A stretch of 64,000 nt of DNA from Escherichia coli. GTDB taxonomy: Bacteria; Pseudomonadota; Gammaproteobacteria; Enterobacterales; Enterobacteriaceae. Location of the stretch: assembly GCF_003334305.1 (NCBI RefSeq), contig NZ_QOWS01000007.1; one strand, given 5' to 3'. This document shows positions 5,063-56,910 of this stretch, in pieces (within the stretch, counting starts at the first letter, position 1; each line of letters starts with the position of its first letter). The notes under the pieces are model-generated. The model saw only the letters and a program-made list of their open reading frames with translations, was not told where the DNA came from and searched no databases. Made by a program: the position numbers and the translations under genes.

Positions 5063-7080
5063 TGGATGCCCTGCAATTATTAACCTGGTCGCTGATCCTC
5101 TATCTGTTTGCCAGTCTGGCTTCGCTGTTTTTACTCGGTCTGGACAGACTGGCTATTAAGCTTTCCGGCATCACATCGCTGGTGGGCGGCGTGATTGGCA
5201 TCATCAGCGGAATTACGCAATTACATGCTGGTGTAACTTTAGTCGCCCGTTTTGCCACCCCTTTTGACTTTGCCGATTTTACCCTGCGAATGGATAGCCT
5301 CTCGGCATTTATGGTGCTGGTTATCTCCTTGCTGGTGGTGGTTTGTTCGCTCTATTCATTGACTTATATGCGCGAATACGAGGGCAAAGGCGCGGCGGCG
5401 ATGGGCTTCTTTATGAATCTTTTCATCGCATCGATGGTTGCCCTGCTGGTGATGGACAACGCTTTTTGGTTCATCGTGCTGTTTGAAATGATGTCGCTGT
5501 CTTCCTGGTTTCTGGTCATTGCCAGGCAGGATAAAACGTCGATCAACGCTGGCATGCTCTACTTTTTTATCGCCCACGCCGGATCGGTGCTGATTATGAT
5601 CGCCTTCTTGCTGATGGGGCGCGAAAGCGGCAGCCTCGATTTTGCCAGTTTCCGCACGCTTTCACTTTCTCCGGGGCTGGCGTCGGCGGTGTTCCTGCTG
5701 GCCTTTTTCGGTTTTGGCGCGAAAGCCGGGATGATGCCGTTGCACAGCTGGTTGCCGCGCGCTCACCCTGCCGCACCATCGCACGCTTCGGCGTTGATGT
5801 CTGGCGTAATGGTCAAAATCGGTATTTTCGGCATCCTGAAAGTAGCGATGGACCTGCTGGCGCAAACGGGTTTGCCGCTGTGGTGGGGCATTCTGGTGAT
5901 GGCGATCGGCGCAATCTCCGCGCTCCTGGGCGTGCTGTATGCGCTGGCGGAACAGGATATCAAACGGCTGCTGGCCTGGAGTACCGTCGAAAACGTCGGC
6001 ATTATTTTGCTGGCAGTCGGTGTGGCGATGGTCGGTCTGTCACTGCACGACCCGCTGCTCACCGTGGTTGGACTGCTCGGCGCACTGTTTCATCTGCTCA
6101 ACCATGCGCTGTTCAAAGGGCTGCTATTTCTCGGCGCGGGCGCGATTATTTCGCGTTTGCATACCCACGACATGGAAAAAATGGGGGCACTGGCGAAACG
6201 GATGCCGTGGACAGCCGCAGCATGCCTGATTGGTTGCCTCGCGATATCAGCCATTCCTCCGCTGAATGGTTTTATCAGCGAATGGTACACCTGGCAGTCG
6301 CTGTTCTCACTAAGTCGTGTGGAAGCCGTAGCGCTACAACTTGCGGGTCCTATTGCTATGGTAATGCTGGCAGTCACTGGTGGGCTGGCAGTAATGTGCT
6401 TCGTAAAAATGTACGGTATTACTTTCTGTGGTGCGCCGCGCAGTACACACGCTGAAGAGGCACAGGAAGTGCCAAATACGATGATCGTCGCCATGCTACT
6501 GCTCGCGGCACTCTGCGTATTAATTGCGCTTAGTGCCAGTTGGCTGGCACCGAAGATAATGCATATTGCCCATGCGTTTACCAATACCCCTCCCGTCACT
6601 GTCGCCAGCGGAATAGCACTTGTACCCGGCACGTTTCATACACAGGTCACCCCCTCATTACTGTTGCTGTTACTACTGGCGATGCCTTTGCTGCCTGGCC
6701 TTTACTGGCTGTGGTGTCGTTCGCGCCGCGCAGCGTTTCGTCGCACAGGAGATGCCTGGGCATGCGGCTACGGCTGGGAAAATGCGATGGCCCCGTCAGG
6801 CAATGGCGTGATGCAGCCGCTGCGTGTGGTCTTCTCTGCGTTATTTCGTCTACGACAACAGCTCGACCCTACGCTGAGGCTAAATAAAGGTTTTGCGCAC
6901 GTCACCGCCAGGGCTCAGAGCACAGAACCCTTCTGGGATGAGCGGGTGATCCGCCCCATCGTGAGCGCCACCCAACGGCTGGCCAAAGAAATACAGCATC
7001 TGCAAAGCGGCGACTTTCGTCTCTATTGCCTGTATGTGGTCGCCGCACTGGTTGTGCTGCTAATCGCTATTGCCGTCTAA
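5062..7080 (+). CDS. hyfB: hydrogenase-4 component B, NuoL/MnhA-like membrane subunit
   Basis: 672-aa polytopic membrane ORF with the antiporter-like motif KRLLAWSTVENVG. Confidence 0.92.
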   Translation: MDALQLLTWSLILYLFASLASLFLLGLDRLAIKLSGITSLVGGVIGIISGITQLHAGVTLVARFATPFDFADFTLRMDSLSAFMVLVISLLVVVCSLYSLTYMREYEGKGAAAMGFFMNLFIASMVALLVMDNAFWFIVLFEMMSLSSWFLVIARQDKTSINAGMLYFFIAHAGSVLIMIAFLLMGRESGSLDFASFRTLSLSPGLASAVFLLAFFGFGAKAGMMPLHSWLPRAHPAAPSHASALMSGVMVKIGIFGILKVAMDLLAQTGLPLWWGILVMAIGAISALLGVLYALAEQDIKRLLAWSTVENVGIILLAVGVAMVGLSLHDPLLTVVGLLGALFHLLNHALFKGLLFLGAGAIISRLHTHDMEKMGALAKRMPWTAAACLIGCLAISAIPPLNGFISEWYTWQSLFSLSRVEAVALQLAGPIAMVMLAVTGGLAVMCFVKMYGITFCGAPRSTHAEEAQEVPNTMIVAMLLLAALCVLIALSASWLAPKIMHIAHAFTNTPPVTVASGIALVPGTFHTQVTPSLLLLLLLAMPLLPGLYWLWCRSRRAAFRRTGDAWACGYGWENAMAPSGNGVMQPLRVVFSALFRLRQQLDPTLRLNKGFAHVTARAQSTEPFWDERVIRPIVSATQRLAKEIQHLQSGDFRLYCLYVVAALVVLLIAIAV

Positions 7081-43659: not shown

Positions 43660-43755
43660 CTCTTTCTGAATATAAAAATGAACCCTCAACGCTTCCCTCA
43701 ATGTTTCGGGAGCTATGCGGGTTCAATCATACACGGGAAGCGAGGCGCTTCCCAT
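43660..43755 (-). ncRNA. sroE: probable SroE small RNA region (ispG 3' UTR / hisS leader)
   Basis: 110-nt structured spacer between ispG and hisS. From memory, SroE maps to the gcpE-hisS spacer in E. coli; boundaries are approximate and unverified. Confidence 0.35.
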
Positions 43756-43762
43756 CACGTTA

Positions 43763-44881
43763 TTATTTTTCAACCTGCTGAACGTCAATTCGACGCGCTT
43801 CGTCCAGCTGACTGGCTTTCGCACGAATGCGTGCTTCCAGCTGGTCGATCATATCGTTGTTGTCCAGACGGTCTTTGCGCACGCCATCTTCATAGAGGCC
43901 GCTTTTCTTGTTGCCGCCGGTGACGCCGAGTGTAGAAACCAGCGCCTCACCTGGGCCATTCACCACGCAGCCGATAATCGAAACGTCCATCGGAGTGATG
44001 ATATCTTCCAGGCGTTGCTCCAGCGCGTTAACCGTACCGATAACATCAAATTCCTGACGCGAACAGGTCGGGCAGGCGATGAAGTTGATCCCGCGCGAAC
44101 GGATACGCAGCGATTTCAAAATATCGAAACCGACTTTGATCTCTTCGACCGGATCGGCCGCCAGTGATACGCGCAGCGTGTCGCCGATGCCTTCAGACAG
44201 CAGCAGACCTAAACCAATGGCGGATTTTACTGCCCCGCTGCGTGCACCACCGGCTTCGGTGATCCCCAGATGCAGCGGCTGATCGATCTGTTTTGCCAGC
44301 AAACGATAAGACTCAACAGCGAGGAAGACGTCAGACGCTTTCACGCTGACTTTGAACTGATCGAAGTTCAGGCGATCGAGATGATCAACATGGCGCATGG
44401 CGGATTCCAGCAACGCCTGCGGCGTCGGTTCGCCATACTTTTCTTGCAGATCTTTTTCCAGCGATCCGGCGTTAACGCCAATACGGATCGGAATGTTTTT
44501 ATCGCGCGCACAGTCAACCACCATGCGAATACGCTCTTCATTACCGATATTGCCAGGGTTAATACGCAGACAATCGACGCCGTATTCCGCTACTTTCAGT
44601 GCAATGCGATAGTCGAAGTGGATGTCAGCCACCAGCGGCACGTTAACCTGCTGTTTGATGAGTTTGAACGCTTCTGCCGCGTCCATCGTCGGTACGGAGA
44701 CACGGACGATATCAGCGCCAACGCGTTCCAGCGCCTTGATTTGATTGACCGTTGCTTCGACGTCTGTCGTACGCGTATTGGTCATGGACTGTACGGCGAT
44801 GGGAGCACCATCGCCAATCGGCACATTCCCAACGTAAATACGTGTTGATTTTCTACGTTGAATTGGAGCCTGGTTATGCAT
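43763..44881 (-). CDS. ispG: 4-hydroxy-3-methylbut-2-enyl diphosphate synthase (flavodoxin)
   Basis: 372-aa ORF recognised as IspG/GcpE. Confidence 0.95.
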
Positions 44882-47403: not shown

Positions 47404-47450
47404 GTTGAAAAAAGAAACGCCCCGGTGAGCGGCTGCTCGTCCGGGGGCGC
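47404..47450 (-). terminator. rho-independent terminator downstream of ndk
   Basis: Minus-strand GC-rich hairpin (cgcccccgg...ccggggcg) followed by tttctttttt. Confidence 0.5.
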
Positions 47451-47509
47451 TGCATTGTACAAATTCTGGCGCACGGATGCCACGTTTGCACGCGGCATTT
47501 ACGAAATTA

Positions 47510-47941
47510 TTAACGGGTGCGCGGGCACACTTCGCCTTCGCCAAAGAAATAAGCGATTTCGCGAGCGGCAGATTCGACGGAATCAGAACCGTGGGTACCG
47601 TTTTCGGTCAGGCTGTCAGCGTAATCAGCGCGCAGAGTACCAGCCAGTGCGTTTGCCGGATTGGTCGCGCCCAGCAGATCGCGGTGACGCTGAACGGCGT
47701 TTTCACCTTCCAGCACGGAAACCACGATCGGGCCAGAGGTCATGAATTCAACCAGACCATCAAAGAACGGTTTTCCATCGTGTTCAGCATAAAAGCCACG
47801 TGCCTGTTCAACGGTCAGGTGCAGCATTTTGGTGCCGACAATTTTGAACCCTGCAGCTTCAAAGCGCGCAAAGATATTACCAATGACGTTTTTTGCTACC
47901 GCGTTCGGTTTGATGATGGAAAAAGTACGTTCAATAGCCAT
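47510..47941 (-). CDS. ndk: nucleoside diphosphate kinase
   Basis: 143-aa ORF recognised as Ndk. Confidence 0.95.
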
Positions 47942-48089
47942 TTTTACCTCTGTAAATTGTTCTGTTGTTGTCTGTACCAGCGTACGAGATGGCGCGGATT
48001 ATAATGAGCAACAGGGCCGTTGACTATTGATGAAGGTAACATTTTTTTAAAATAAAATGAGTTTTAGCAACAATCAGGGACAAAACAGA

Positions 48090-50402
48090 CTATTGCATGA
48101 CAAATTTCACTGTCGCGATTTGCCCCACATCATCCATCACCAGCAATTGATAATCACCTTTATCCGTCAAATGCAGGGTCACGTTGCGCCCGCGTTCAGT
48201 TAACGGTTCGCCATTCAGAAACCACCAGCGTTCACCTGCCCCTCCACTTGATTGCAACGGCAAAGTCGCTTCCGCTGCGCCCGGTAAACGTTTAATAATC
48301 GCGCCATCGCGAACGCCTGTCAGCTGCAGAGGGAGCTGGGCATCGTGACCGTATGGCGGGCAAATTGTCGAGGCCGGTGGTAAGCGCACAGCGCGACGTT
48401 CTGATGCGGGCAGCCAGGGTTCCAGCGGTAGCGGCCAGACATTTATCATTTCTTGTCGCGCTTGCGGGCAATCAGCGGCAACACGTTTGCCATTTTCATC
48501 CAGCCAGATGGGGAAACGAATGCCATTAATGCCTTCCTGCTCCGGCAGTAATAGAGTTGGCGGCTGACTCCCGTCCAGCAGCCAGGTTGCCAGGCGGCGG
48601 CGACAGTTACCGTCACCTTCCGGCAAAGACTGTCCGCCCGGCCAGCAGATAACGCCACGAGTGACTGAGTTCGGGCGCGGGTCTTCCGGCAGATTCGCAC
48701 TGCGCGACAGTAAGATATTATTGACCTGATTCAACAATGGTACGGCACTGGCAAAGCCAAACTGACCAACAACGGGCGTGCCGTCCGGTCTGCCAGTCCA
48801 GATCCCAATGACATAGCGAGCGTTAACCCCAATCGCCCAGGCGTCACGATAGCCATAGCTGGTGCCCGTTTTCCATGCCAGTGGGGCGACGCGCGGCAAG
48901 GCACTATCCGGCAAGGGTTTCGCTTCATCAGCCATAATCCGGCGAATGATCCACGCCGCCCCCGACGACATTAAAGGCCGTTCAAGCAGCGGATCGTCAG
49001 GCTGTAAGCGCAATTTGCCTGCCTTGCCGTGGCGAGCAAACGCGGTATACGCTGCCGCCATATCTTCCAGTTTTGCACCAGCGCCGCCGAGAATGAGTGA
49101 AAGATTCGGCGCAGCACCGTTGGGCAAATATAACGGCAATCCAACATTGCGTAACTTTGCCGCAAACCGTTTCGGTCCATAGGCTTCCAGCACCTGCACA
49201 GCAGGTAAGTTCAGCGAGCGCACCAGCGCCTCGCTCATGCTGATCGGGCCATGAAAACCGCTATCAAAGTTACCTGGTCGATAATCACCGGTGCGCCGGG
49301 GGACGTCTTGCAGCAGTGATGCCGGGTGGATCAAGCCTTCATCCAGCGCCAGACCATAAACAAACGGTTTGAGCACCGATCCTGGCGATCGGATCGCATT
49401 GACCATATCAACATGACCAAAGCGTGAATCATCGTTGAGATCAACCGATCCCACCCAGCCGCGAACACGCATATCGGTATGATCAACCACGATCATCGCC
49501 AGTGAGCTGCGCGGTGGCAACCGCCCTTTCCAGTTTTGCGCCAGTTCTTCCAGACGTCGTTGAAGACCGGCATCCAGCGTAGTAACGATTTTGTCGCTTT
49601 TGCTTTTACCGAGCATCATGCGCGAAAACAGCGGTGCCAGTTGCGGCATTTGTCGGGGTGCCAGCCAGATGGGTTCTTCCCTTGACTCTTTTACCTGCTC
49701 ACGGGACCACACACCTTGCACGGCCATCCGTTCGAGCACTTTATTACGCGCGGCTTCGGCACGCTCCGGCCAACGATCCGGGCGAAGACGGCTGGGCGCT
49801 TGCGGCAAAACCGCCAGCATTGCCGCCTCGGAATAGCTTAAATTCGCAGGCGACTTTCCGAGATAAGCCCAACTTGCCGCACCGATCCCCTGCAACGTAC
49901 CGCCAAACGGAGCGCGGTTAAGATACAAGGTCAGAATTTCACGCTTAGACAGATGCCATTCCAGTTGCAACGCGCGCCAGAGTTGGCGAATTTTGCCGCC
50001 AAATGTTTTGGGGTGAGGATCAAGCAGACGAGCAACCTGCATAGTGAGCGTGCTGCCACCGGAAATAACCCGTCCCGAAGTGAGATCTTGCCATGCTGCG
50101 CGCGCCACCGAGAATGGATTCACCCCCGGATGCTTCCAGAACCAGCGATCTTCATAATTGATCAGCGCTTCAAGGTAACGTGGAGAAACATCTTCGATTG
50201 TTACCGGATAACGCCAGATGCCGTCAGCATCGGCGAAGCGCCATAGCGGCGTACCATCCTGCGCCACGACCACTCGTGCGGGATTGACTTCATGCAGCGG
50301 TAGAGGCCAGCGTTTATCTGCTCCCCACGCTGCAAGAAAAAGGAGAAATGGCGCAGCTGCCAGCGTTATCCAGCAGCCGCGTTTGGTTAACAAGCGAGGC
50401 AT
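48090..50402 (-). CDS. pbpC: penicillin-binding protein 1C (transglycosylase/transpeptidase)
   Basis: 770-aa ORF; start codon directly abuts the yfhM stop. Confidence 0.9.
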   Translation of the reverse strand: MPRLLTKRGCWITLAAAPFLLFLAAWGADKRWPLPLHEVNPARVVVAQDGTPLWRFADADGIWRYPVTIEDVSPRYLEALINYEDRWFWKHPGVNPFSVARAAWQDLTSGRVISGGSTLTMQVARLLDPHPKTFGGKIRQLWRALQLEWHLSKREILTLYLNRAPFGGTLQGIGAASWAYLGKSPANLSYSEAAMLAVLPQAPSRLRPDRWPERAEAARNKVLERMAVQGVWSREQVKESREEPIWLAPRQMPQLAPLFSRMMLGKSKSDKIVTTLDAGLQRRLEELAQNWKGRLPPRSSLAMIVVDHTDMRVRGWVGSVDLNDDSRFGHVDMVNAIRSPGSVLKPFVYGLALDEGLIHPASLLQDVPRRTGDYRPGNFDSGFHGPISMSEALVRSLNLPAVQVLEAYGPKRFAAKLRNVGLPLYLPNGAAPNLSLILGGAGAKLEDMAAAYTAFARHGKAGKLRLQPDDPLLERPLMSSGAAWIIRRIMADEAKPLPDSALPRVAPLAWKTGTSYGYRDAWAIGVNARYVIGIWTGRPDGTPVVGQFGFASAVPLLNQVNNILLSRSANLPEDPRPNSVTRGVICWPGGQSLPEGDGNCRRRLATWLLDGSQPPTLLLPEQEGINGIRFPIWLDENGKRVAADCPQARQEMINVWPLPLEPWLPASERRAVRLPPASTICPPYGHDAQLPLQLTGVRDGAIIKRLPGAAEATLPLQSSGGAGERWWFLNGEPLTERGRNVTLHLTDKGDYQLLVMDDVGQIATVKFVMQ

Positions 50403-53400
50403 TTACGGTCGGACAATCAGCAGATCTTCAGCCGCGCCGGTCGCCCGCCATTGGGGAACATACATTGATTCCACCATCGGTTGCGGTACCTGATACGTTC
50501 CCGGCGTCACCGCCCGCGCCAGATACACCAGCGTTACCGGTTGGTATTCATCAACGGCAACCGCCGCCACAAAGCGATCGTCACGGAACTCAATGTGCTT
50601 AATGCTCGCCTGCTGCATCTGGTTCAGTAAGTTTTGCACTTCGCCACCACTTTGCTCCAGGCTGGCGCTACCGTTCGCCAGATTCTGATTTTCCAGTTCC
50701 AGACCCGCAGGCAGCAGATCCACGACTAACGCATCCGGCACGCTGTTACTGGCTTTTACCTGCAACCAGACCAGCACCAGATCGCCGCTACGTAACGAGT
50801 CCAGCGATTTGCTCTTACCATCAGTACCAAGAATATGACGCTCGATTTGCAGCACATTGTTCGCCGGTAAAGGTGCGGATTGCGGATAACCGCTGGCATC
50901 CATACGCAACCATAACGGCTGATCGCCACTGTTTCTCACCTGCAAGGTGGCAAGTTGATCGCTATTCAGATTGCTGTTTAGCGTTTTCTCGCCTGTCAGC
51001 GGCTCAGCTGAGAAAGAGGTTTGCGCCTGCCATTTACCCGGTAAATCCTGAATCGTACGGGCAGCCAGGAACAACGCGTTACTTTCCTGCGTCGATAGCC
51101 AGCGTTCACCAAACGCCTGCTGCGAAAGTGTGTTCAGCAAAGTGTACTGCTCATCGGGTAGCAGTTTATTTTCTTCCAGCAAGGAGAGCATTAACGCGTT
51201 GTCGCGCAGTGGACTACCGTAATCACCCAGCCATATCCGCTCATCACTATTTCTCGGCGTTTTCAGCGCCAGCACAATCGCTTCTTCACCACGCGTTGCA
51301 TCACCCATGGTTTTCAGCGCAACGCCAAGTTGCAGCAGCGGTAAACCAGAAGCGGCATCTGCACGATGCTCCCAGATTTCACGCAGCGCACCCAGCGGAG
51401 CCTTTTGTTGACGGGCCAACACCAGCGCAGCGTAAGACTGTACGGCGAATTTACTGGCTTTGAGATTATCCGCGTACGGGATCGACATCATGCCCGGATC
51501 TTGTAAATAGCGCAGCAGACGCTCATTACCCCGGTTAATGGCGTCTGTCGGCACGCTGTAACCCTGTTCGCCTGCGCGGACCAGGAAATCCATCACGTAA
51601 GCCGTCAGCCAGTACTCTTCGTCACCGTTTTTATCCCACAGCGCAAAGCCGCCGTTATCACGTTGCATTTGCAGCAAACGGGAAATGCCGATATCGACCG
51701 ATGCACGGCGTTTCTCATCACTGTCGCCTTTGATGCCCAACGCCTGCAGTTGGGCTGCGTTGGTATAAAGTGACGGGAACAGGCCGCTGGCGGTTTGCTC
51801 AAGACAGCCGTACGGATACGCTTTTAACTCTTTGATATAACGTGCAATGTTCAGCGGTGGTTTGCCGCTCAACAACAATTGCCCTTCCAGCGTAACAGGC
51901 GAGAAGTTTTGCAATCCATCCGCCGGAATCGCCCATGTCTCACCAGGCTGTAACGCCGTACCGTAATTAACCGTTTGTGCCGGGAACGCCGGACGGACGC
52001 CGATTTTCCACTGCTTCTGCTGATCGGCAACGGTTTCATCCGGTAACGCTAACCCGCTAATGGTGGCCTGAATTTCTCCATCGCCATAACCCGGCAATGC
52101 TCGCACCGGGATAAACAGCGTAGTACGCACACCTGGCGCTAATTCAACGGCTGCGGGTGAATCGCTGACCAGTTCAAGCAAACCACTGGCGGTCAGGGCA
52201 ACGTTCAGTTTTTGCGGTTTATCGGTAAGATTAGTGATATCCAGCGTCAGACGCGAGGTATCGCCACTCGCCATAAAGCGCGGCATGTTCAGTTCAGCAA
52301 TCACCGGTGCGGCAACTATCACTTTGCTTTCGTTGCTACCGAAGTCATCTGCCGTCCAGGCTTGCGCCATGACGCGTAATTCACCGTTAAAATCGCCAAT
52401 CGGCAGTGTAACCGAGCCTTCGCCCTGTTCGTTGAGCGTTACCGGCAGCGCCTGCTGCGCGACAATATTGACGTGATTGACCGGCGGTTTACCACCACGT
52501 TTCAGCTCATCACCATCGCCACCGAAACGCAGAGCTGCCAGACGCCCCTGACCTTCAATAACCTGACCGTAAATATCGTAAATGTCTGCGCCATAGCGTT
52601 TCTGACCAAAGAACGCCTGCCACGGATCTGGCGTGACGTAGTCAGTAATATTCAGCACACCACTATCAACGGCAGACACCAGCACATTCACCTGTTTAGG
52701 CTTCTCGCCATTTTTAGTGCTGGCTTTAATTTTCACGGTTAATGGTTGATTGGGACGCATTTTTGCTGGTGTTTCCAGCGCCAGATCGAGGCGACGGTTT
52801 TCATCGCCAAGCGGCAGATGCAACACACCAACCGCGCGTTTTGGCGTCGCGGAGCGAGATTTATCGCCAGGACGTACCACCAGCGTACTTAAATACAGAT
52901 CATGACGATTCCAGGTTTTATCGACCGGAATCGTCAGATCCAGCCCTTGAGCCGGAACATCAATCTCTTGCCACCACAGCGGCCCTTCACTGGACTCGAC
53001 CATCGCATAACCTTTACCCGCCGTTGGCGCGGCGATATGCAACTTAATGGTGTCGCCAGGGCGATAACTGGCTTTATCCAGTTTCAGCGTGACACGGTCG
53101 GGTCGCACTGCGCCGCTACCGTCGCTGTTGTCCTGCCAGCTATAGCCAGCCCAGAAACGAACACTACTGACCGCTTCATTCGGCGCTTTGACTTCCAGAC
53201 GATAAGCGCCCCACTCTACCGGAAAACTGACCTTGCCGGTTTCGTCCGCTTTCAGATCCAGAGTTTGTTCATTTTCGATCAGATCTTTTTGATCAAACTG
53301 TGACTGCCAGCCTTCATCTTCTGACCAGTTCCAGTAGTAATCGCGGCGTTCGCGAATCAGGCGCACCTGCAAGCCCGACACGGCTTTTTTCACGCCTTGC

Positions 53401-55364
53401 GCATCGCTATAAACGATGTCAAAAGCGGCGTTACTGCCTTCATCAACAATGGGCTGTTTCACCGTGCTGTCAGTACGATAATCGTAAACCGATTTCGAGG
53501 CGAACTGCGGACGGATCCCCGGCAATGCATCGGCAGGCCAGATAGCCTGCTCAGCGCGGCGCGTCACCGGGCGACCGCCCGATTCCAGCAAACTACCCTG
53601 GAAAATAACCTGTAATGGGGAATGCGTTTCCTTCCACTGGCTTTCTGTAGAAACTTCGCCGCGCCCTTTATCATCCAGCGTCAACTGAACTTCATCCAGC
53701 GTGCGGGAAAGATTTTCGGCAGCTATATCGCCGAATTCAAAACCAGGTAAGGCTGACACAGCTTCACGCAGTGGGCGCAGGAAAAGTTGCCCTTGCAAAG
53801 TATTACCATTAGCAGGTGCACCATACAGGTAGTACCCCACCACGGAGAATTTCACTTCATCTTTCGGCGTTAGCGGGGTTTTCTCACCGGTCAGATTCAG
53901 CGCCATGCGCTCTGGCATAAAATCTTCGACGTGGAAATCCCACATCCGATACTGGTTATCGCCCGTGTTAGCGCGAATATGCCACATACCGGTTGCCGCA
54001 TTGCTATCGAGTGGCCAGGTAAAGTGGTAGAGGCCATTTTCCGGCTGACTAACGACGCTCCTGAGTACCTGCCCATCGGGTTTAATCACGTCTAACTTGA
54101 TGGGTTGATTGGGCAACGCTTTACCGTCTGCATCACGCAGCAAACCATTGAGGATTACCGTTTCACCCGGGCGATAAAGATCGCGTGGGCCAAACATGAA
54201 AAACTGTTTGCTATAGCCTGGCGCGCCAGCAATGTTAAATTCTGCTAAGTCCAGCGCCGGAAGTTTTAAATCGAGTAGCGTTGTCTGACCGTCTTTACGC
54301 GCCAACAGTAATGCCGCGTTTTTATCATTTTCCAGCTGCACATGCCCCTGAGCGTCACTGGTTGCCTGAGTCAGAGTCTGCCCTTTCTCATTTAATAAAG
54401 AGACTTCAATTCCTTGCTGGGCCGCGCCGTTTTCCAGACTTTGGGTAAAGATATCCAGACGATTGTGATAACGGTGAGCTGAAACGCCGATATCACTTAA
54501 CGTAAACAGCGTCGCGGGATTACTGTAATCGTAACGTCCAGCCTGATTCATCACAGCCAGATACACGCCCGCCTGCTGAAGCGGTTTGATATCGCCCAGC
54601 GGCAGCAATAATTTTTCACGGGTGTTACGCGCAGGATTGAGATCAAACCGTCCGGTGTAGACCAGATCCGCCATCTGCAGCAGTTTGTCTGACTGCCAGT
54701 TCGCCAGCGAATTGCGGTATTCCCATTGGCTAATGAATGCTGGCAGAGATTCTGGCTTAACGCGGAAGAAGTTAACATCGACATTATTAACGTTGAGCGC
54801 CATTACCGGCAGCCCTTCAACGACTTTACCAGGCAGCAGCGAACCACGGCTGGCAAAACCGACGCTGGGTTGGATGTCGCGGGTAGTTATAGTTTTTTCG
54901 TAATCTTTACTGAAGGTTGCGTTGTTGAGTGCTTTGACCTCCTTGCCAATAGTAACGATCAAATCACGTTTCGGTTCGAGGTGGCGTAAACGTAACTCTT
55001 TAAGATTATCTGACAGCTCCCAGGCACCATCCACTTTGCCGCTTTTTTTATCGACGACATGAATAACGCGTGAGAAATCCTGATCCGGGTCGAGAGGGAT
55101 GGAGAACGTCAGCACCAGCGTGGCTGCACCATCAAGTTGGACTTCAGAGAGATCCAGCAATGTCAGCACCTTACCGGCACTCTGTTGGGCCAGTTTTTGT
55201 CTCTCCGGCACGGAGAGTTTTGCTGAACTCGCGTTTTCTGAAGAGGCCGCTTTAGTAACTTCAGAAGGCGCATCTTTTTTCACCGCTGTTGGCGCGTTAT
55301 CGTTGTTGTCGCACCCTGCCAGCGCCAGCATTAGCATGCAGGCGGCTACGCGTAACTTTTTCAT
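50403..55364 (-). CDS. yfhM: alpha-2-macroglobulin family lipoprotein (ECAM)
   Basis: 1653-aa ORF with lipobox LALAGC and thioester motif CLEQ (YGCLEQTASG). Confidence 0.9.
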   Translation of the reverse strand: MKKLRVAACMLMLALAGCDNNDNAPTAVKKDAPSEVTKAASSENASSAKLSVPERQKLAQQSAGKVLTLLDLSEVQLDGAATLVLTFSIPLDPDQDFSRVIHVVDKKSGKVDGAWELSDNLKELRLRHLEPKRDLIVTIGKEVKALNNATFSKDYEKTITTRDIQPSVGFASRGSLLPGKVVEGLPVMALNVNNVDVNFFRVKPESLPAFISQWEYRNSLANWQSDKLLQMADLVYTGRFDLNPARNTREKLLLPLGDIKPLQQAGVYLAVMNQAGRYDYSNPATLFTLSDIGVSAHRYHNRLDIFTQSLENGAAQQGIEVSLLNEKGQTLTQATSDAQGHVQLENDKNAALLLARKDGQTTLLDLKLPALDLAEFNIAGAPGYSKQFFMFGPRDLYRPGETVILNGLLRDADGKALPNQPIKLDVIKPDGQVLRSVVSQPENGLYHFTWPLDSNAATGMWHIRANTGDNQYRMWDFHVEDFMPERMALNLTGEKTPLTPKDEVKFSVVGYYLYGAPANGNTLQGQLFLRPLREAVSALPGFEFGDIAAENLSRTLDEVQLTLDDKGRGEVSTESQWKETHSPLQVIFQGSLLESGGRPVTRRAEQAIWPADALPGIRPQFASKSVYDYRTDSTVKQPIVDEGSNAAFDIVYSDAQGVKKAVSGLQVRLIRERRDYYWNWSEDEGWQSQFDQKDLIENEQTLDLKADETGKVSFPVEWGAYRLEVKAPNEAVSSVRFWAGYSWQDNSDGSGAVRPDRVTLKLDKASYRPGDTIKLHIAAPTAGKGYAMVESSEGPLWWQEIDVPAQGLDLTIPVDKTWNRHDLYLSTLVVRPGDKSRSATPKRAVGVLHLPLGDENRRLDLALETPAKMRPNQPLTVKIKASTKNGEKPKQVNVLVSAVDSGVLNITDYVTPDPWQAFFGQKRYGADIYDIYGQVIEGQGRLAALRFGGDGDELKRGGKPPVNHVNIVAQQALPVTLNEQGEGSVTLPIGDFNGELRVMAQAWTADDFGSNESKVIVAAPVIAELNMPRFMASGDTSRLTLDITNLTDKPQKLNVALTASGLLELVSDSPAAVELAPGVRTTLFIPVRALPGYGDGEIQATISGLALPDETVADQQKQWKIGVRPAFPAQTVNYGTALQPGETWAIPADGLQNFSPVTLEGQLLLSGKPPLNIARYIKELKAYPYGCLEQTASGLFPSLYTNAAQLQALGIKGDSDEKRRASVDIGISRLLQMQRDNGGFALWDKNGDEEYWLTAYVMDFLVRAGEQGYSVPTDAINRGNERLLRYLQDPGMMSIPYADNLKASKFAVQSYAALVLARQQKAPLGALREIWEHRADAASGLPLLQLGVALKTMGDATRGEEAIVLALKTPRNSDERIWLGDYGSPLRDNALMLSLLEENKLLPDEQYTLLNTLSQQAFGERWLSTQESNALFLAARTIQDLPGKWQAQTSFSAEPLTGEKTLNSNLNSDQLATLQVRNSGDQPLWLRMDASGYPQSAPLPANNVLQIERHILGTDGKSKSLDSLRSGDLVLVWLQVKASNSVPDALVVDLLPAGLELENQNLANGSASLEQSGGEVQNLLNQMQQASIKHIEFRDDRFVAAVAVDEYQPVTLVYLARAVTPGTYQVPQPMVESMYVPQWRATGAAEDLLIVRP

Positions 55365-55570
55365 TTTTCATCCCTGCCACAATGGCCCGTTAGCAACGTC
55401 GAATAATTATTATGCGTGAGAATTTACGTTATGTAATTCAGTATCACGCCCATACAATCCGAATTTTAGTGAGAATTGTGGCTCAGACAGCCAAATCAGC
55501 CTCTTTCGCTTGTCGCTTTTCACTAAACATCCGACAATTTAGCCTAACCCCGGCAAAAATGGAGATGCCT

Positions 55571-56462: not shown

Positions 56463-56606
56463 TGCTGGTCTGGTTCGCGGCCTTTCCAGCAGGTTGTATT
56501 ACCGTAGTAATGCAAGCGCGTCTCAGCGGAGACAATACTCGCCAGTAACTCTCTTTTTGTCAAGCAAAAGAGAGTTATTATTGTTCTGTTAGTGTATTAT
56601 CCACTG

Positions 56607-56910
56607 CGGCCCTTTCCGCCGTCTCGCAAGCGGGCGCTGGCTTAAGGAAAGGATGTTCCGCGACCGTTAGAGCAAGCGCGTCTCAGCGCTTGCTATCGCG
56701 GCAATATCGCCAGTGGTGCTGTCGTGATGCGGTCTTCGCATGGACCGCACAATGAAGATACGGTGCTTCTGTATCGTACTTATTGTTTCTGGTGCGCTGT
56801 TTTCCCAAGTAAATAATAACCGGAGTCTCTCCGGCGACAATTTACTGGTGGTTAACAACCTTCAGAGCAGCAAGTAAGCCCGAATGCCGCCCTTTGGGGC
56901 GGCATATTTT
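56607..56910 (+). ncRNA. ryfA: probable RyfA small RNA locus
   Basis: Structured 490-nt sseA-sseB spacer ending in a plus-strand intrinsic terminator (gccgccc-tttg-gggcggc + atatttt) at 56886..56910. From memory, ryfA lies between sseA and sseB; 5' end and strand are inferred. Confidence 0.3.

Follow-up and report, generated by a model that had tools for sequence, protein, structure and literature searches.

An intact yfhM-pbpC pair in an Escherichia coli chromosome, with an abutting junction consistent with translational coupling

The locus at 48090..55364 of the window, the 64,000-nucleotide stretch of DNA analysed here, is the core E. coli yfhM-pbpC pair, in which both open reading frames are intact, with all the sequence features of their families in place. 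We consider it well supported overall that this is an intact known pair, whose two genes are probably co-transcribed and whose pbpC would mostly be translated by reinitiation after the yfhM stop. The ORF list and translations place yfhM at 50403..55364 (1653 aa) and pbpC at 48090..50402 (770 aa), which are exactly the coordinates of the original prediction, and both genes lie on the minus strand, a point left unsaid there. Each reading frame ends in a single terminal stop and contains zero internal stops and zero frameshifts, and the claim that both genes are intact therefore holds. The window is E. coli chromosome, and its 7.5-kb yfhM-pbpC stretch matches several RefSeq genomes with the same gene calls at 100% identity; because so many genomes are identical, a frameshift masked by sequencing error is unlikely here. 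In strain A7 (locus L001), whose sequence is identical, RefSeq annotation puts the boundaries of both CDS at the same places and names the larger gene yfhM. The locus was matched in 5426 of 5426 complete E. coli genomes, and E. coli alleles of the operon that differ at 280 of 7275 nt keep the same junction sequence. The gene pair, the protein structures and the protease-trapping mechanism have already been published, and the locus itself is ordinary, with nothing new; its earlier description as a known system agrees with Pfam, NCBIfam, PDB sequence matches, RefSeq annotation and the literature.

Judged from its sequence, the YfhM of the window carries all the features of a trapping macroglobulin, and it is 99.3% identical to the K-12 protein. 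A Pfam search, run on the protein as two overlapping halves, detected the A2M and thioester domains within a full bacterial macroglobulin array (bMG1, A2M_bMG2, bMG3, MG2, bMG5, bMG6, A2M_BRD, A2M, TED_complement, CUB_A2MG and bMG10, with E-values of 6e-8 to 2.5e-51), the outcome anticipated for the domain search that had been proposed on this protein. No NCBIfam model matched YfhM at E <= 1e-10, so its family membership rests on Pfam, the RefSeq annotation and PDB matches, among which the E. coli macroglobulin ECAM (4rtd, 4ziq and 5a42) scores 3627-3658 bits. At its N terminus YfhM has a lipoprotein signal peptide, MKKLRVAACMLMLALAGC (55311..55364, minus strand), which ends in the lipobox L-A-G-C at residues 15-18 (55311..55322, minus strand); the presumed lipidated Cys18, preceded by the stretch MKKLRVAACMLMLALAG, is followed by Asp19, Asp at position +2 being the inner-membrane retention rule of Lol sorting. 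ECAM is reported to be anchored in the inner membrane (PMC4498604), and from the K-12 and Salmonella work YfhM would be a periplasmic lipoprotein tethered there.

The elements of the trapping mechanism are likewise in place. With residue ranges taken from PMC4498604, the bait region comprises residues 923-963 inside the bait-region domain (52476..52598, minus strand) and shows zero differences from K-12; in that work Arg923-Leu942 is disordered after cleavage and Phe947-Asn963 rebinds the CTMG domain. The thioester motif C1187-L-E-Q1190 in the TED (51795..51806, minus strand) is intact, and the original prediction was right about both this CLEQ motif and the lipobox. The thioester-pocket residues Tyr1183 and Tyr1185 are present, as are RDDR (1594) and ESMY (1632-1635, including Met1634 and Tyr1635) in the C-terminal MG domain; the roles of all these residues and of the motif are described in PMC4498604. 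A protease cutting the bait region would trigger a rearrangement that exposes the Cys1187-Gln1190 thioester, so that the protease becomes covalently linked and caged (PMC4498604, PMC3328433). Thioester formation and covalent protease trapping after bait cleavage have been reported for the K-12 protein (PMC4498604; Doan & Gettins 2008 and Neves 2012, as cited).

K-12 YfhM (ECAM, b2520; PDB 4RTD, 4ZIQ and 5A42), a type I macroglobulin, has the same length of 1653 aa, locus and domain order, and 1642 of 1653 residues are identical, including the lipobox, CLEQ, Tyr1183, Tyr1185, RDDR, ESMY and the bait region. The 11 substitutions (K-12 to window: R804P, V969A, G1109D, H1116Q, A1364V, S1385P, Q1455P, A1461T, Q1462L, V1472A and S1477R) do not fall on any residue with an assigned function. 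The Sa-A2M of Salmonella enterica (PDB 4U48, 4U4J and 4U59), an orthologue in another genus, matches over its full length (3039 bits) with the same architecture; it is reported to be 82% identical to ECAM, with its thioester protected at the TED-CTMG interface (PMC4498604), and published work has used it to model the native state of ECAM. Type II macroglobulins (MagD of the P. aeruginosa mag operon and the E. coli YfaS class) belong to the same fold family, but MagD lacks the lipobox Cys and CxEQ and is encoded in a six-gene operon, not beside pbpC. Since a lipobox Cys, CxEQ and a pbpC neighbour are all present in the window, its YfhM is assigned to type I.

The downstream gene encodes PBP1C, a class A penicillin-binding protein, as its family scores and domains indicate. 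PbpC exceeds the NCBIfam PBP1C equivalog cut-offs (NF008414, 1566.4 bits against a cut-off of 1121; TIGR02073, 920.8 against 494.2) and scores below the cut-offs of the PBP1A and PBP1B models. The domain search suggested for this protein found a GT51 Transgly domain at residues 61-226 (49725..50222, minus strand; Pfam 4.9e-52), with E84 in EDRWFWKHPG and GGSTLTMQ at 115, and a Transpeptidase domain at residues 330-519 (48846..49415, minus strand; Pfam 1.5e-11), with S342-V-L-K, S396-L-N and K511-T-G, all catalytic motifs being intact. Residues 687-767 form a BiPBP_C domain (PF06832; 48102..48344, minus strand; Pfam 4.8e-17), the typical C-terminal domain of PBP1C, and residues 11-27, WITLAAAPFLLFLAAWG (50322..50372, minus strand), form a putative hydrophobic membrane anchor, in line with the single N-terminal TM anchor described for PBP1c (PMC3328433). 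From published work on near-identical proteins, PbpC is an inner-membrane-anchored class A enzyme with glycosyltransferase, transpeptidase-like and BiPBP_C domains; its glycan polymerisation and beta-lactam binding are known from the literature. K-12 PbpC (b2519; Schiffer & Holtje 1999, as cited in PMC7554673 and PMC3328433) has the same 770 aa, three domains and catalytic motifs, with 765 of 770 residues identical, and the five substitutions (K-12 to window: L31R, T273V, S336A, Q495K and S680I) spare the functional residues. Within E. coli no part of the operon varies more than the anchor region, with 17-18 differences in nt 1-120 of pbpC versus 80-82 in the other 2193 nt (window compared with strains A37 and S8). 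Among the matches listed in a homologue search were an E. coli-type cluster of near-identical proteins and relatives at the Citrobacter level (86-87% identity); a PDB sequence search with PbpC returned no PBP1C structure, the best match being P. aeruginosa PBP1a (4OON).

Read along the coding strand, the junction is GTC CGA CCG TAA ATG CCT, the yfhM TAA (50403..50405) directly preceding the pbpC ATG (50400..50402) at a gap of 0 nt, just as the original prediction had described. As stop and start adjoin in this way, the two genes share a reading frame. The same GACCGTAAATG spans the TAA/ATG junction (50400..50405, minus strand) in K-12, two divergent E. coli alleles, E. albertii and two Citrobacter. 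Upstream, the yfhM ATG is preceded at 45-73 nt by a sigma-70-like match, ATTACA-17-CATAAT (9/12; 55409..55437, minus strand); promoter and terminator scans gave site numbers no higher than in shuffled sequence, so the yfhM promoter is to be read as a consensus match only. The lack of space for a promoter or terminator between the genes makes it probable that yfhM and pbpC are transcribed together, and ribosomes ending at the yfhM TAA could restart at the adjoining AUG, which would be the main source of PbpC.

[quoted passage not shown] The anti-SD duplex before pbpC has a dG of +0.4 kcal/mol, weaker than 94% of 20-nt windows inside yfhM, while yfhM itself (SD AGGGA, dG -6.0) and ndk, sseA, ispG, pepB, iscX and fdx fall between -5.5 and -7.4 kcal/mol. 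In the predicted fold, 50436..50450 (yfhM codons ~1638-1643) pairs with 50388..50400 (the G of the pbpC AUG and codons 2-5) to form a start-masking stem with an inner hairpin (50388..50450, minus strand), which a ribosome finishing yfhM would melt. The 110-nt junction segment has an MFE of -42.9 kcal/mol (z = -2.5), and 2 of 200 shuffles fold as well. Within Escherichia the changes in the stem are pair-compatible and one-sided only; pair counts over Escherichia and Citrobacter gave no two-sided covariation in the helix, whose pairing is broken in Citrobacter, and the stem was not recovered in a consensus fold of 12 Enterobacteriaceae. The stem may thus be offered only as a weak, genus-level prediction. 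Rfam found zero RNA families inside 48090..55364.

Termination-reinitiation in E. coli requires distances of a few nt (PMC10666635). Compared with the E. coli pairs hyfH-hyfI, ydbH-ynbE and menD-menH (Huber et al. 2019, 2023), yfhM-pbpC is likewise on one strand and at a distance inside the working range, which is shown by -1-nt native overlaps and +2-nt mutants; those pairs, however, overlap by 1 nt, mostly with an intragenic SD, whereas in yfhM-pbpC the distance is 0 nt, the frame is shared and an SD is lacking. Among five E. coli pairs whose SD was removed, reinitiation dropped by 60-90% in three and disappeared in one (PMC6728339), so an SD-less junction such as this may reinitiate poorly. 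As SD-less reinitiation is usually inefficient in E. coli, the output of PbpC would be low and fixed relative to that of YfhM.

The abutting stop and start could instead reflect genome compaction, with pbpC initiated de novo, either SD-independently on the operon mRNA or on a transcript from a promoter inside yfhM; we hold this to be possible but rather unlikely. The 0-nt geometry is common, since 24% of the unidirectional gene pairs in E. coli are spaced at -8..+6 nt (PMC10666635), and bioBF, a tested overlapping E. coli pair, uses de novo initiation instead of coupling (PMC6728339). Within the window rodZ is also SD-less (dG +0.4), and it lies beyond rlmN across a 284-nt spacer, too far away for termination-reinitiation. 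In addition, a K-12 RpoE genomic-SELEX peak lies inside yfhM (PMC5493296), making an internal promoter conceivable, but a search within 600 nt of the peak (window ~52943), with thresholds of 6/7 plus 4/5 matches, turned up no sigma-E-like consensus. De novo 30S binding at pbpC should moreover be poor, since the gene has no SD and its start is predicted to be paired, and the junction sequence is constant over Escherichia and Citrobacter while neighbouring codons vary.

The wider distribution of the pair bears on this alternative as well. From a 50%-representative search we assembled 79 related loci of other species, 70 of which had enough upstream sequence. Of these 70 testable loci, which come from alpha-, beta-, gamma- and deltaproteobacteria, 65 have a CxEQ macroglobulin gene upstream of pbpC and in the same orientation, so the synteny comparison envisaged in the original prediction recovers the A2M-pbpC order, and its recurrence in four proteobacterial classes is far beyond chance. 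The genes are adjacent on the same strand in 60 loci and separated by 1.4-5.4 kb in five, and pbpC stands without an A2M gene in the remaining 5/70. A tight junction (start within -20..+12 nt) occurs in only 30 of the 60 adjacent pairs, ten of them with a 4-nt overlap; the gap measures 400-750 nt in Pseudomonas, ~50-60 nt in Yersinia and Photorhabdus and 4-5 kb in Xanthomonas. Across taxa neither the tight junction nor, with it, coupling is a universal property of the pair, and since many taxa have long A2M-pbpC spacers, pbpC can evidently be expressed uncoupled, which favours de novo initiation. We nevertheless prefer reinitiation after the yfhM stop as the main route to PbpC in the window.

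Cooperation of YfhM and PBP1C in defence and repair is a hypothesis, 'periplasmic defence and repair', that PMC4498604, PMC3328433 and PMC7554673 attribute to Budd et al. 2004: after a breach of the outer membrane YfhM would neutralise incoming proteases and PBP1C would add glycan-strand synthesis for repair. No role of PBP1C is known under laboratory conditions, nor can it stand in for PBP1a/1b (PMC7554673), and the first PBP1c phenotype reported was LdtD-dependent NADA incorporation on PBP1c overproduction (PMC6131605).

That the two proteins are not partners, their linkage being a leftover of joint acquisition and co-transcription and PBP1C acting independently, if it is active at all, seems to us improbable. 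Such independence would fit the lack of a laboratory role for PBP1C, the absence of a PBP1C phenotype tied to YfhM, the first reported phenotype concerning LdtD, as well as the five loci with pbpC alone, the five with multi-kilobase gaps, and strain NCTC9100, which has yfhM without pbpC. It is opposed by the same-strand adjacency kept in 60/70 loci of distant proteobacterial classes, always with CxEQ conserved, which would be hard to maintain without selection, and by the enrichment of short overlaps among complex subunits (PMC10666635).

A stronger version of coupling, to which we give little credence, holds that the SD-less in-frame junction and the Escherichia-specific stem would tie PbpC synthesis strictly to translation of yfhM and keep it sub-stoichiometric, with nascent PBP1C placed beside newly made YfhM and joining it in a physical inner-membrane complex. 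If true, it would be the first mechanistic link of the macroglobulin to the 'orphan' synthase PBP1C. The slaving of PbpC to YfhM production lends itself to a simple test: pbpC lacks an SD, its 0-nt in-frame junction is conserved in Escherichia and Citrobacter, roughly half the sampled taxa, Pseudomonas not among them, have tight junctions, and a natural pbpC-ndk deletion strain exists.

Readthrough of the TAA into a functional 2424-residue YfhM-PbpC fusion, for which the single stop in one continuous frame and the in-frame 0-nt arrangement shared by E. albertii and Citrobacter might speak, is rejected as highly improbable: UAA is the stop codon at which E. coli terminates most efficiently, a PbpC anchor of N-in/C-out topology placed after periplasmic YfhM would leave the catalytic domains in the cytoplasm, and spacings of +1, +3 or +11 nt break the frame in other genera of the Enterobacteriaceae.

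Downstream of pbpC (47418..48089, minus strand), the 147-nt spacer to ndk (47510..47941, minus strand) contains a promoter-like site at 48026..47998 in the scan. No coding-strand terminator-like site was found across this spacer or elsewhere before ndk, and the first terminator-like hairpin after pbpC lies beyond ndk at 47431..47418 (minus strand). In strain NCTC9100 yfhM is retained, and pbpC and ndk have been lost.

The yfhM and pbpC genes lie on the minus strand at 50403..55364 (1653 aa) and 48090..50402 (770 aa), and neither contains an internal stop on translation. Direct reading of the coding-strand junction (GTC CGA CCG TAA ATG CCT) placed the yfhM stop TAA at 50403..50405 and the pbpC ATG at 50400..50402 with zero spacer, exactly where the original prediction had put them. 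A point absent from that prediction is that the two genes share one reading frame with a single TAA between them, so that readthrough at 50400..50405 would yield a 2424-residue YfhM-PbpC fusion. The in-frame 0-nt junction also occurs in E. albertii and Citrobacter, and spacings of +1, +3 or +11 nt are found in other Enterobacteriaceae. Several complete E. coli chromosomes carry the 7.5-kb yfhM-pbpC stretch at 100% identity. A search of 5426 complete E. coli genomes gave a match in every one, chromosomal each time, and in 5424 a single place accounts for at least 80% of the stretch. RefSeq CDS boundaries of the identical copy in strain A7, where the products are named "alpha2-macroglobulin" and "peptidoglycan glycosyltransferase PbpC", agree with the window ORFs, and in K-12 MG1655 the genes are arranged alike (b2519 and b2520; hisS-ispG-rodZ-rlmN-ndk-pbpC-yfhM / sseA-timP-sseB-pepB-iscX-fdx-hscA). 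Pfam, RefSeq annotation and the K-12 comparison agree that both genes are intact; the pair is already known, and this copy shows no departure from the known system.

Pfam analysis of YfhM detected the complete set of bacterial macroglobulin domains (bMG1, A2M_bMG2, bMG3, MG2, bMG5, bMG6, bait-region domain, A2M, thioester-bearing domain (TED), CUB and bMG10), bearing out its assignment as an alpha-2-macroglobulin (A2M). YfhM matches the E. coli ECAM structures 4RTD, 4ZIQ and 5A42 across essentially the full mature length, and also Salmonella Sa-A2M (4U48). The anticipated lipobox, L-A-G-C18, is present at the end of the signal peptide, with Asp19 next. By the +2 rule, Asp after the lipidated Cys specifies inner-membrane retention, and YfhM is thus predicted to be retained at the inner membrane. 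The published localisation of ECAM agrees with this (PMC4498604). The thioester motif CLEQ is intact at residues 1187-1190; also present are Tyr1183, Tyr1185 and ESMY (1632-1635) of its pocket and, at 1594, the RDDR motif, with roles as assigned in PMC4498604. None of the 11 substitutions relative to K-12 falls in the bait region (923-963), CLEQ, the pocket residues or RDDR. In the published mechanism, bait cleavage frees a disordered segment that pushes the TED off the C-terminal MG domain, whereupon the thioester is exposed and the cage shuts round the protease (PMC4498604, PMC3328433). Given the intact domains and motifs and the few substitutions, we have high confidence that this mechanism is transferable to YfhM of the window, with thioester formation itself only predicted. 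No model of NCBIfam release 20 matched YfhM at E <= 1e-10, so its RefSeq name must derive from another rule; the protein (50406..55364) is without an NCBIfam model although it is ubiquitous and its structures have been solved.

PbpC contains Transgly (residues 61-226), Transpeptidase (330-519) and BiPBP_C (687-767) domains by Pfam, in keeping with its predicted identity as PBP1C. It scores far over the cut-offs of both NCBIfam PBP1C equivalogs and under those of the PBP1A and PBP1B models. Its motifs E84 (EDRWFWKHPG), SVLK342, SLN396 and KTG511 are all preserved, and the protein departs from K-12 PbpC at just five residues. A PDB sequence search with PbpC returned no PBP1C structure, the top match being P. 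aeruginosa PBP1a. Under laboratory conditions no role is known for PBP1C, and it is unable to substitute for PBP1a/1b (PMC7554673); its first reported phenotype is LdtD-dependent labelling on overproduction (PMC6131605).

Translational coupling was the sole part of the original prediction that is inference rather than description, and the interpretation is supported overall with the caveats that coupling is unproven and cooperation of the products hypothetical. On sequence evidence we moderately favour coupling over initiation of pbpC de novo, independently of yfhM translation, which appears less likely. The 0-nt stop-start distance is within the E. coli termination-reinitiation range; efficiency is reported to drop by 5-70% at +2 nt and by 80-100% at +38 nt (PMC10666635). 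No Shine-Dalgarno (SD) sequence precedes pbpC: the best anti-SD duplex within the upstream 20 nt has +0.4 kcal/mol, weaker than 94% of windows sampled within yfhM, and yfhM, ndk, sseA, ispG, pepB, iscX and fdx have -5.5 to -7.4 kcal/mol. The 110-nt segment spanning the junction has a predicted fold of -42.9 kcal/mol, more stable than shuffles (z = -2.5), in which yfhM codons ~1638-1643 (50436..50450) pair with pbpC codons 2-5 and the preceding G of the start codon (50388..50400); a ribosome completing yfhM would melt this start-masking helix. The junction GACCGTAAATG is identical in K-12, a class of divergent E. coli alleles (280 differences in 7275 nt), E. albertii and two Citrobacter. The helix itself counts against coupling or limits it: its changes are one-sided and compatible only, with no two-sided covariation, its pairing is lost in Citrobacter, and a consensus fold over 12 Enterobacteriaceae failed to reproduce it. 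Among five E. coli pairs, SD removal lowered reinitiation by 60-90% in three and eliminated it in another (PMC6728339), so SD-less coupling at yfhM-pbpC would probably be inefficient. The geometry alone is commonplace, since 24% of unidirectional E. coli pairs have a spacing of -8..+6 nt (PMC10666635). The rodZ start (45921), after a 284-nt spacer behind rlmN, likewise has no detectable SD (anti-SD dG +0.4).

Alignment of 36 diverse PbpC representatives led to 79 loci from species-representative genomes, drawn from the best 80 of at least 600 matches and hence skewed towards relatives of E. coli PbpC; they cover Gamma-, Beta- and Alphaproteobacteria and Desulfobacter. Of the 70 loci that extend 5 kb or more upstream, 65 have a YfhM-like gene on the same strand ahead of pbpC; in 60 its end is under 1 kb from where the PbpC alignment begins, and five loci have pbpC without any A2M inside 8 kb. 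The adjacency is strongly conserved, confirming that type I A2M genes (lipobox and CxEQ) are "often juxtaposed" to pbpC (PMC4498604, PMC3328433). CxEQ is conserved in every A2M whose alignment reaches the site, in the forms CLEQ, CAEQ, CSEQ, CTEQ or CIEQ. In 30 loci pbpC has an in-frame start between -20 and +12 nt relative to the A2M stop (4-nt overlap in ten, 0 nt in three); the spacer is ~50-60 nt in Yersinia and Photorhabdus and 400-750 nt in Pseudomonas (L015-L020). The tight junction is frequent, yet no defining property of the pair. Separations of 1.4-5.4 kb, presumably holding inserted genes, occur in two Xanthomonas (L029-L030; 4-5 kb) and three other taxa (L040, L046, L055).

The 'periplasmic defence and repair' arrangement invoked for the pair is indeed reported, as a proposal: PMC4498604, PMC3328433, PMC6131605 and PMC7554673 credit it to Budd et al. 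2004, and these papers word it as "postulated" and "tempting to speculate". Our literature search found no demonstration of YfhM-PBP1C cooperation or physical interaction, and such cooperation is hypothetical. The complete genome of E. coli NCTC9100 (NZ_LR134239.1; positions 5844..6019 of the locus retrieved) carries an in-place deletion that starts near pbpC codon 9 and extends through ndk; yfhM is kept intact and is now followed immediately by the ndk terminator and rlmN. Therefore, pbpC is dispensable without loss of yfhM, at least in the history of that strain. Among the 5407 genomes matched by the junction query, no other match is cut short on the pbpC side.

Within E. coli, divergence is locally concentrated in pbpC nt 1-120 (50283..50402), which encode the cytoplasmic tail and the membrane anchor: the window differs from strains A37 and S8 at 17-18 positions there, compared with 80-82 across the remaining 2193 nt of pbpC. 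The 301-nt junction query separates two population classes, 1017 genomes matching at only 80-90% identity, and amino-acid changes of the PbpC N-terminus are grouped at residues 13-37. This hotspot could reflect relaxed constraint on a TM helix, or else the allele may be an old recombinant.

No terminator-like hairpin was found on the coding strand after pbpC (47942..48089), and the first terminator-like site downstream is past ndk (47418..47431), so transcription from yfhM may continue into ndk. The 147-nt pbpC-ndk spacer holds a good sigma-70-like match for ndk (TAGTCA-17-TATAAT, 10/12). A genomic SELEX screen placed an RpoE holoenzyme binding peak within yfhM (PMC5493296) at ~52943 (K-12 position 2649866), and no sigma-E-like -35/-10 pair was detected within 600 nt of it at the thresholds used. 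Among neighbouring RNAs, ryfA (56606..56910, plus strand; Rfam 318 bits) lies between sseA and sseB and contains the RefSeq-annotated small toxic inner-membrane protein TimP (56752..56877), and the sRNA sroE (43672..43763, minus strand; Rfam 115 bits) occupies the ispG-hisS spacer immediately downstream of ispG.
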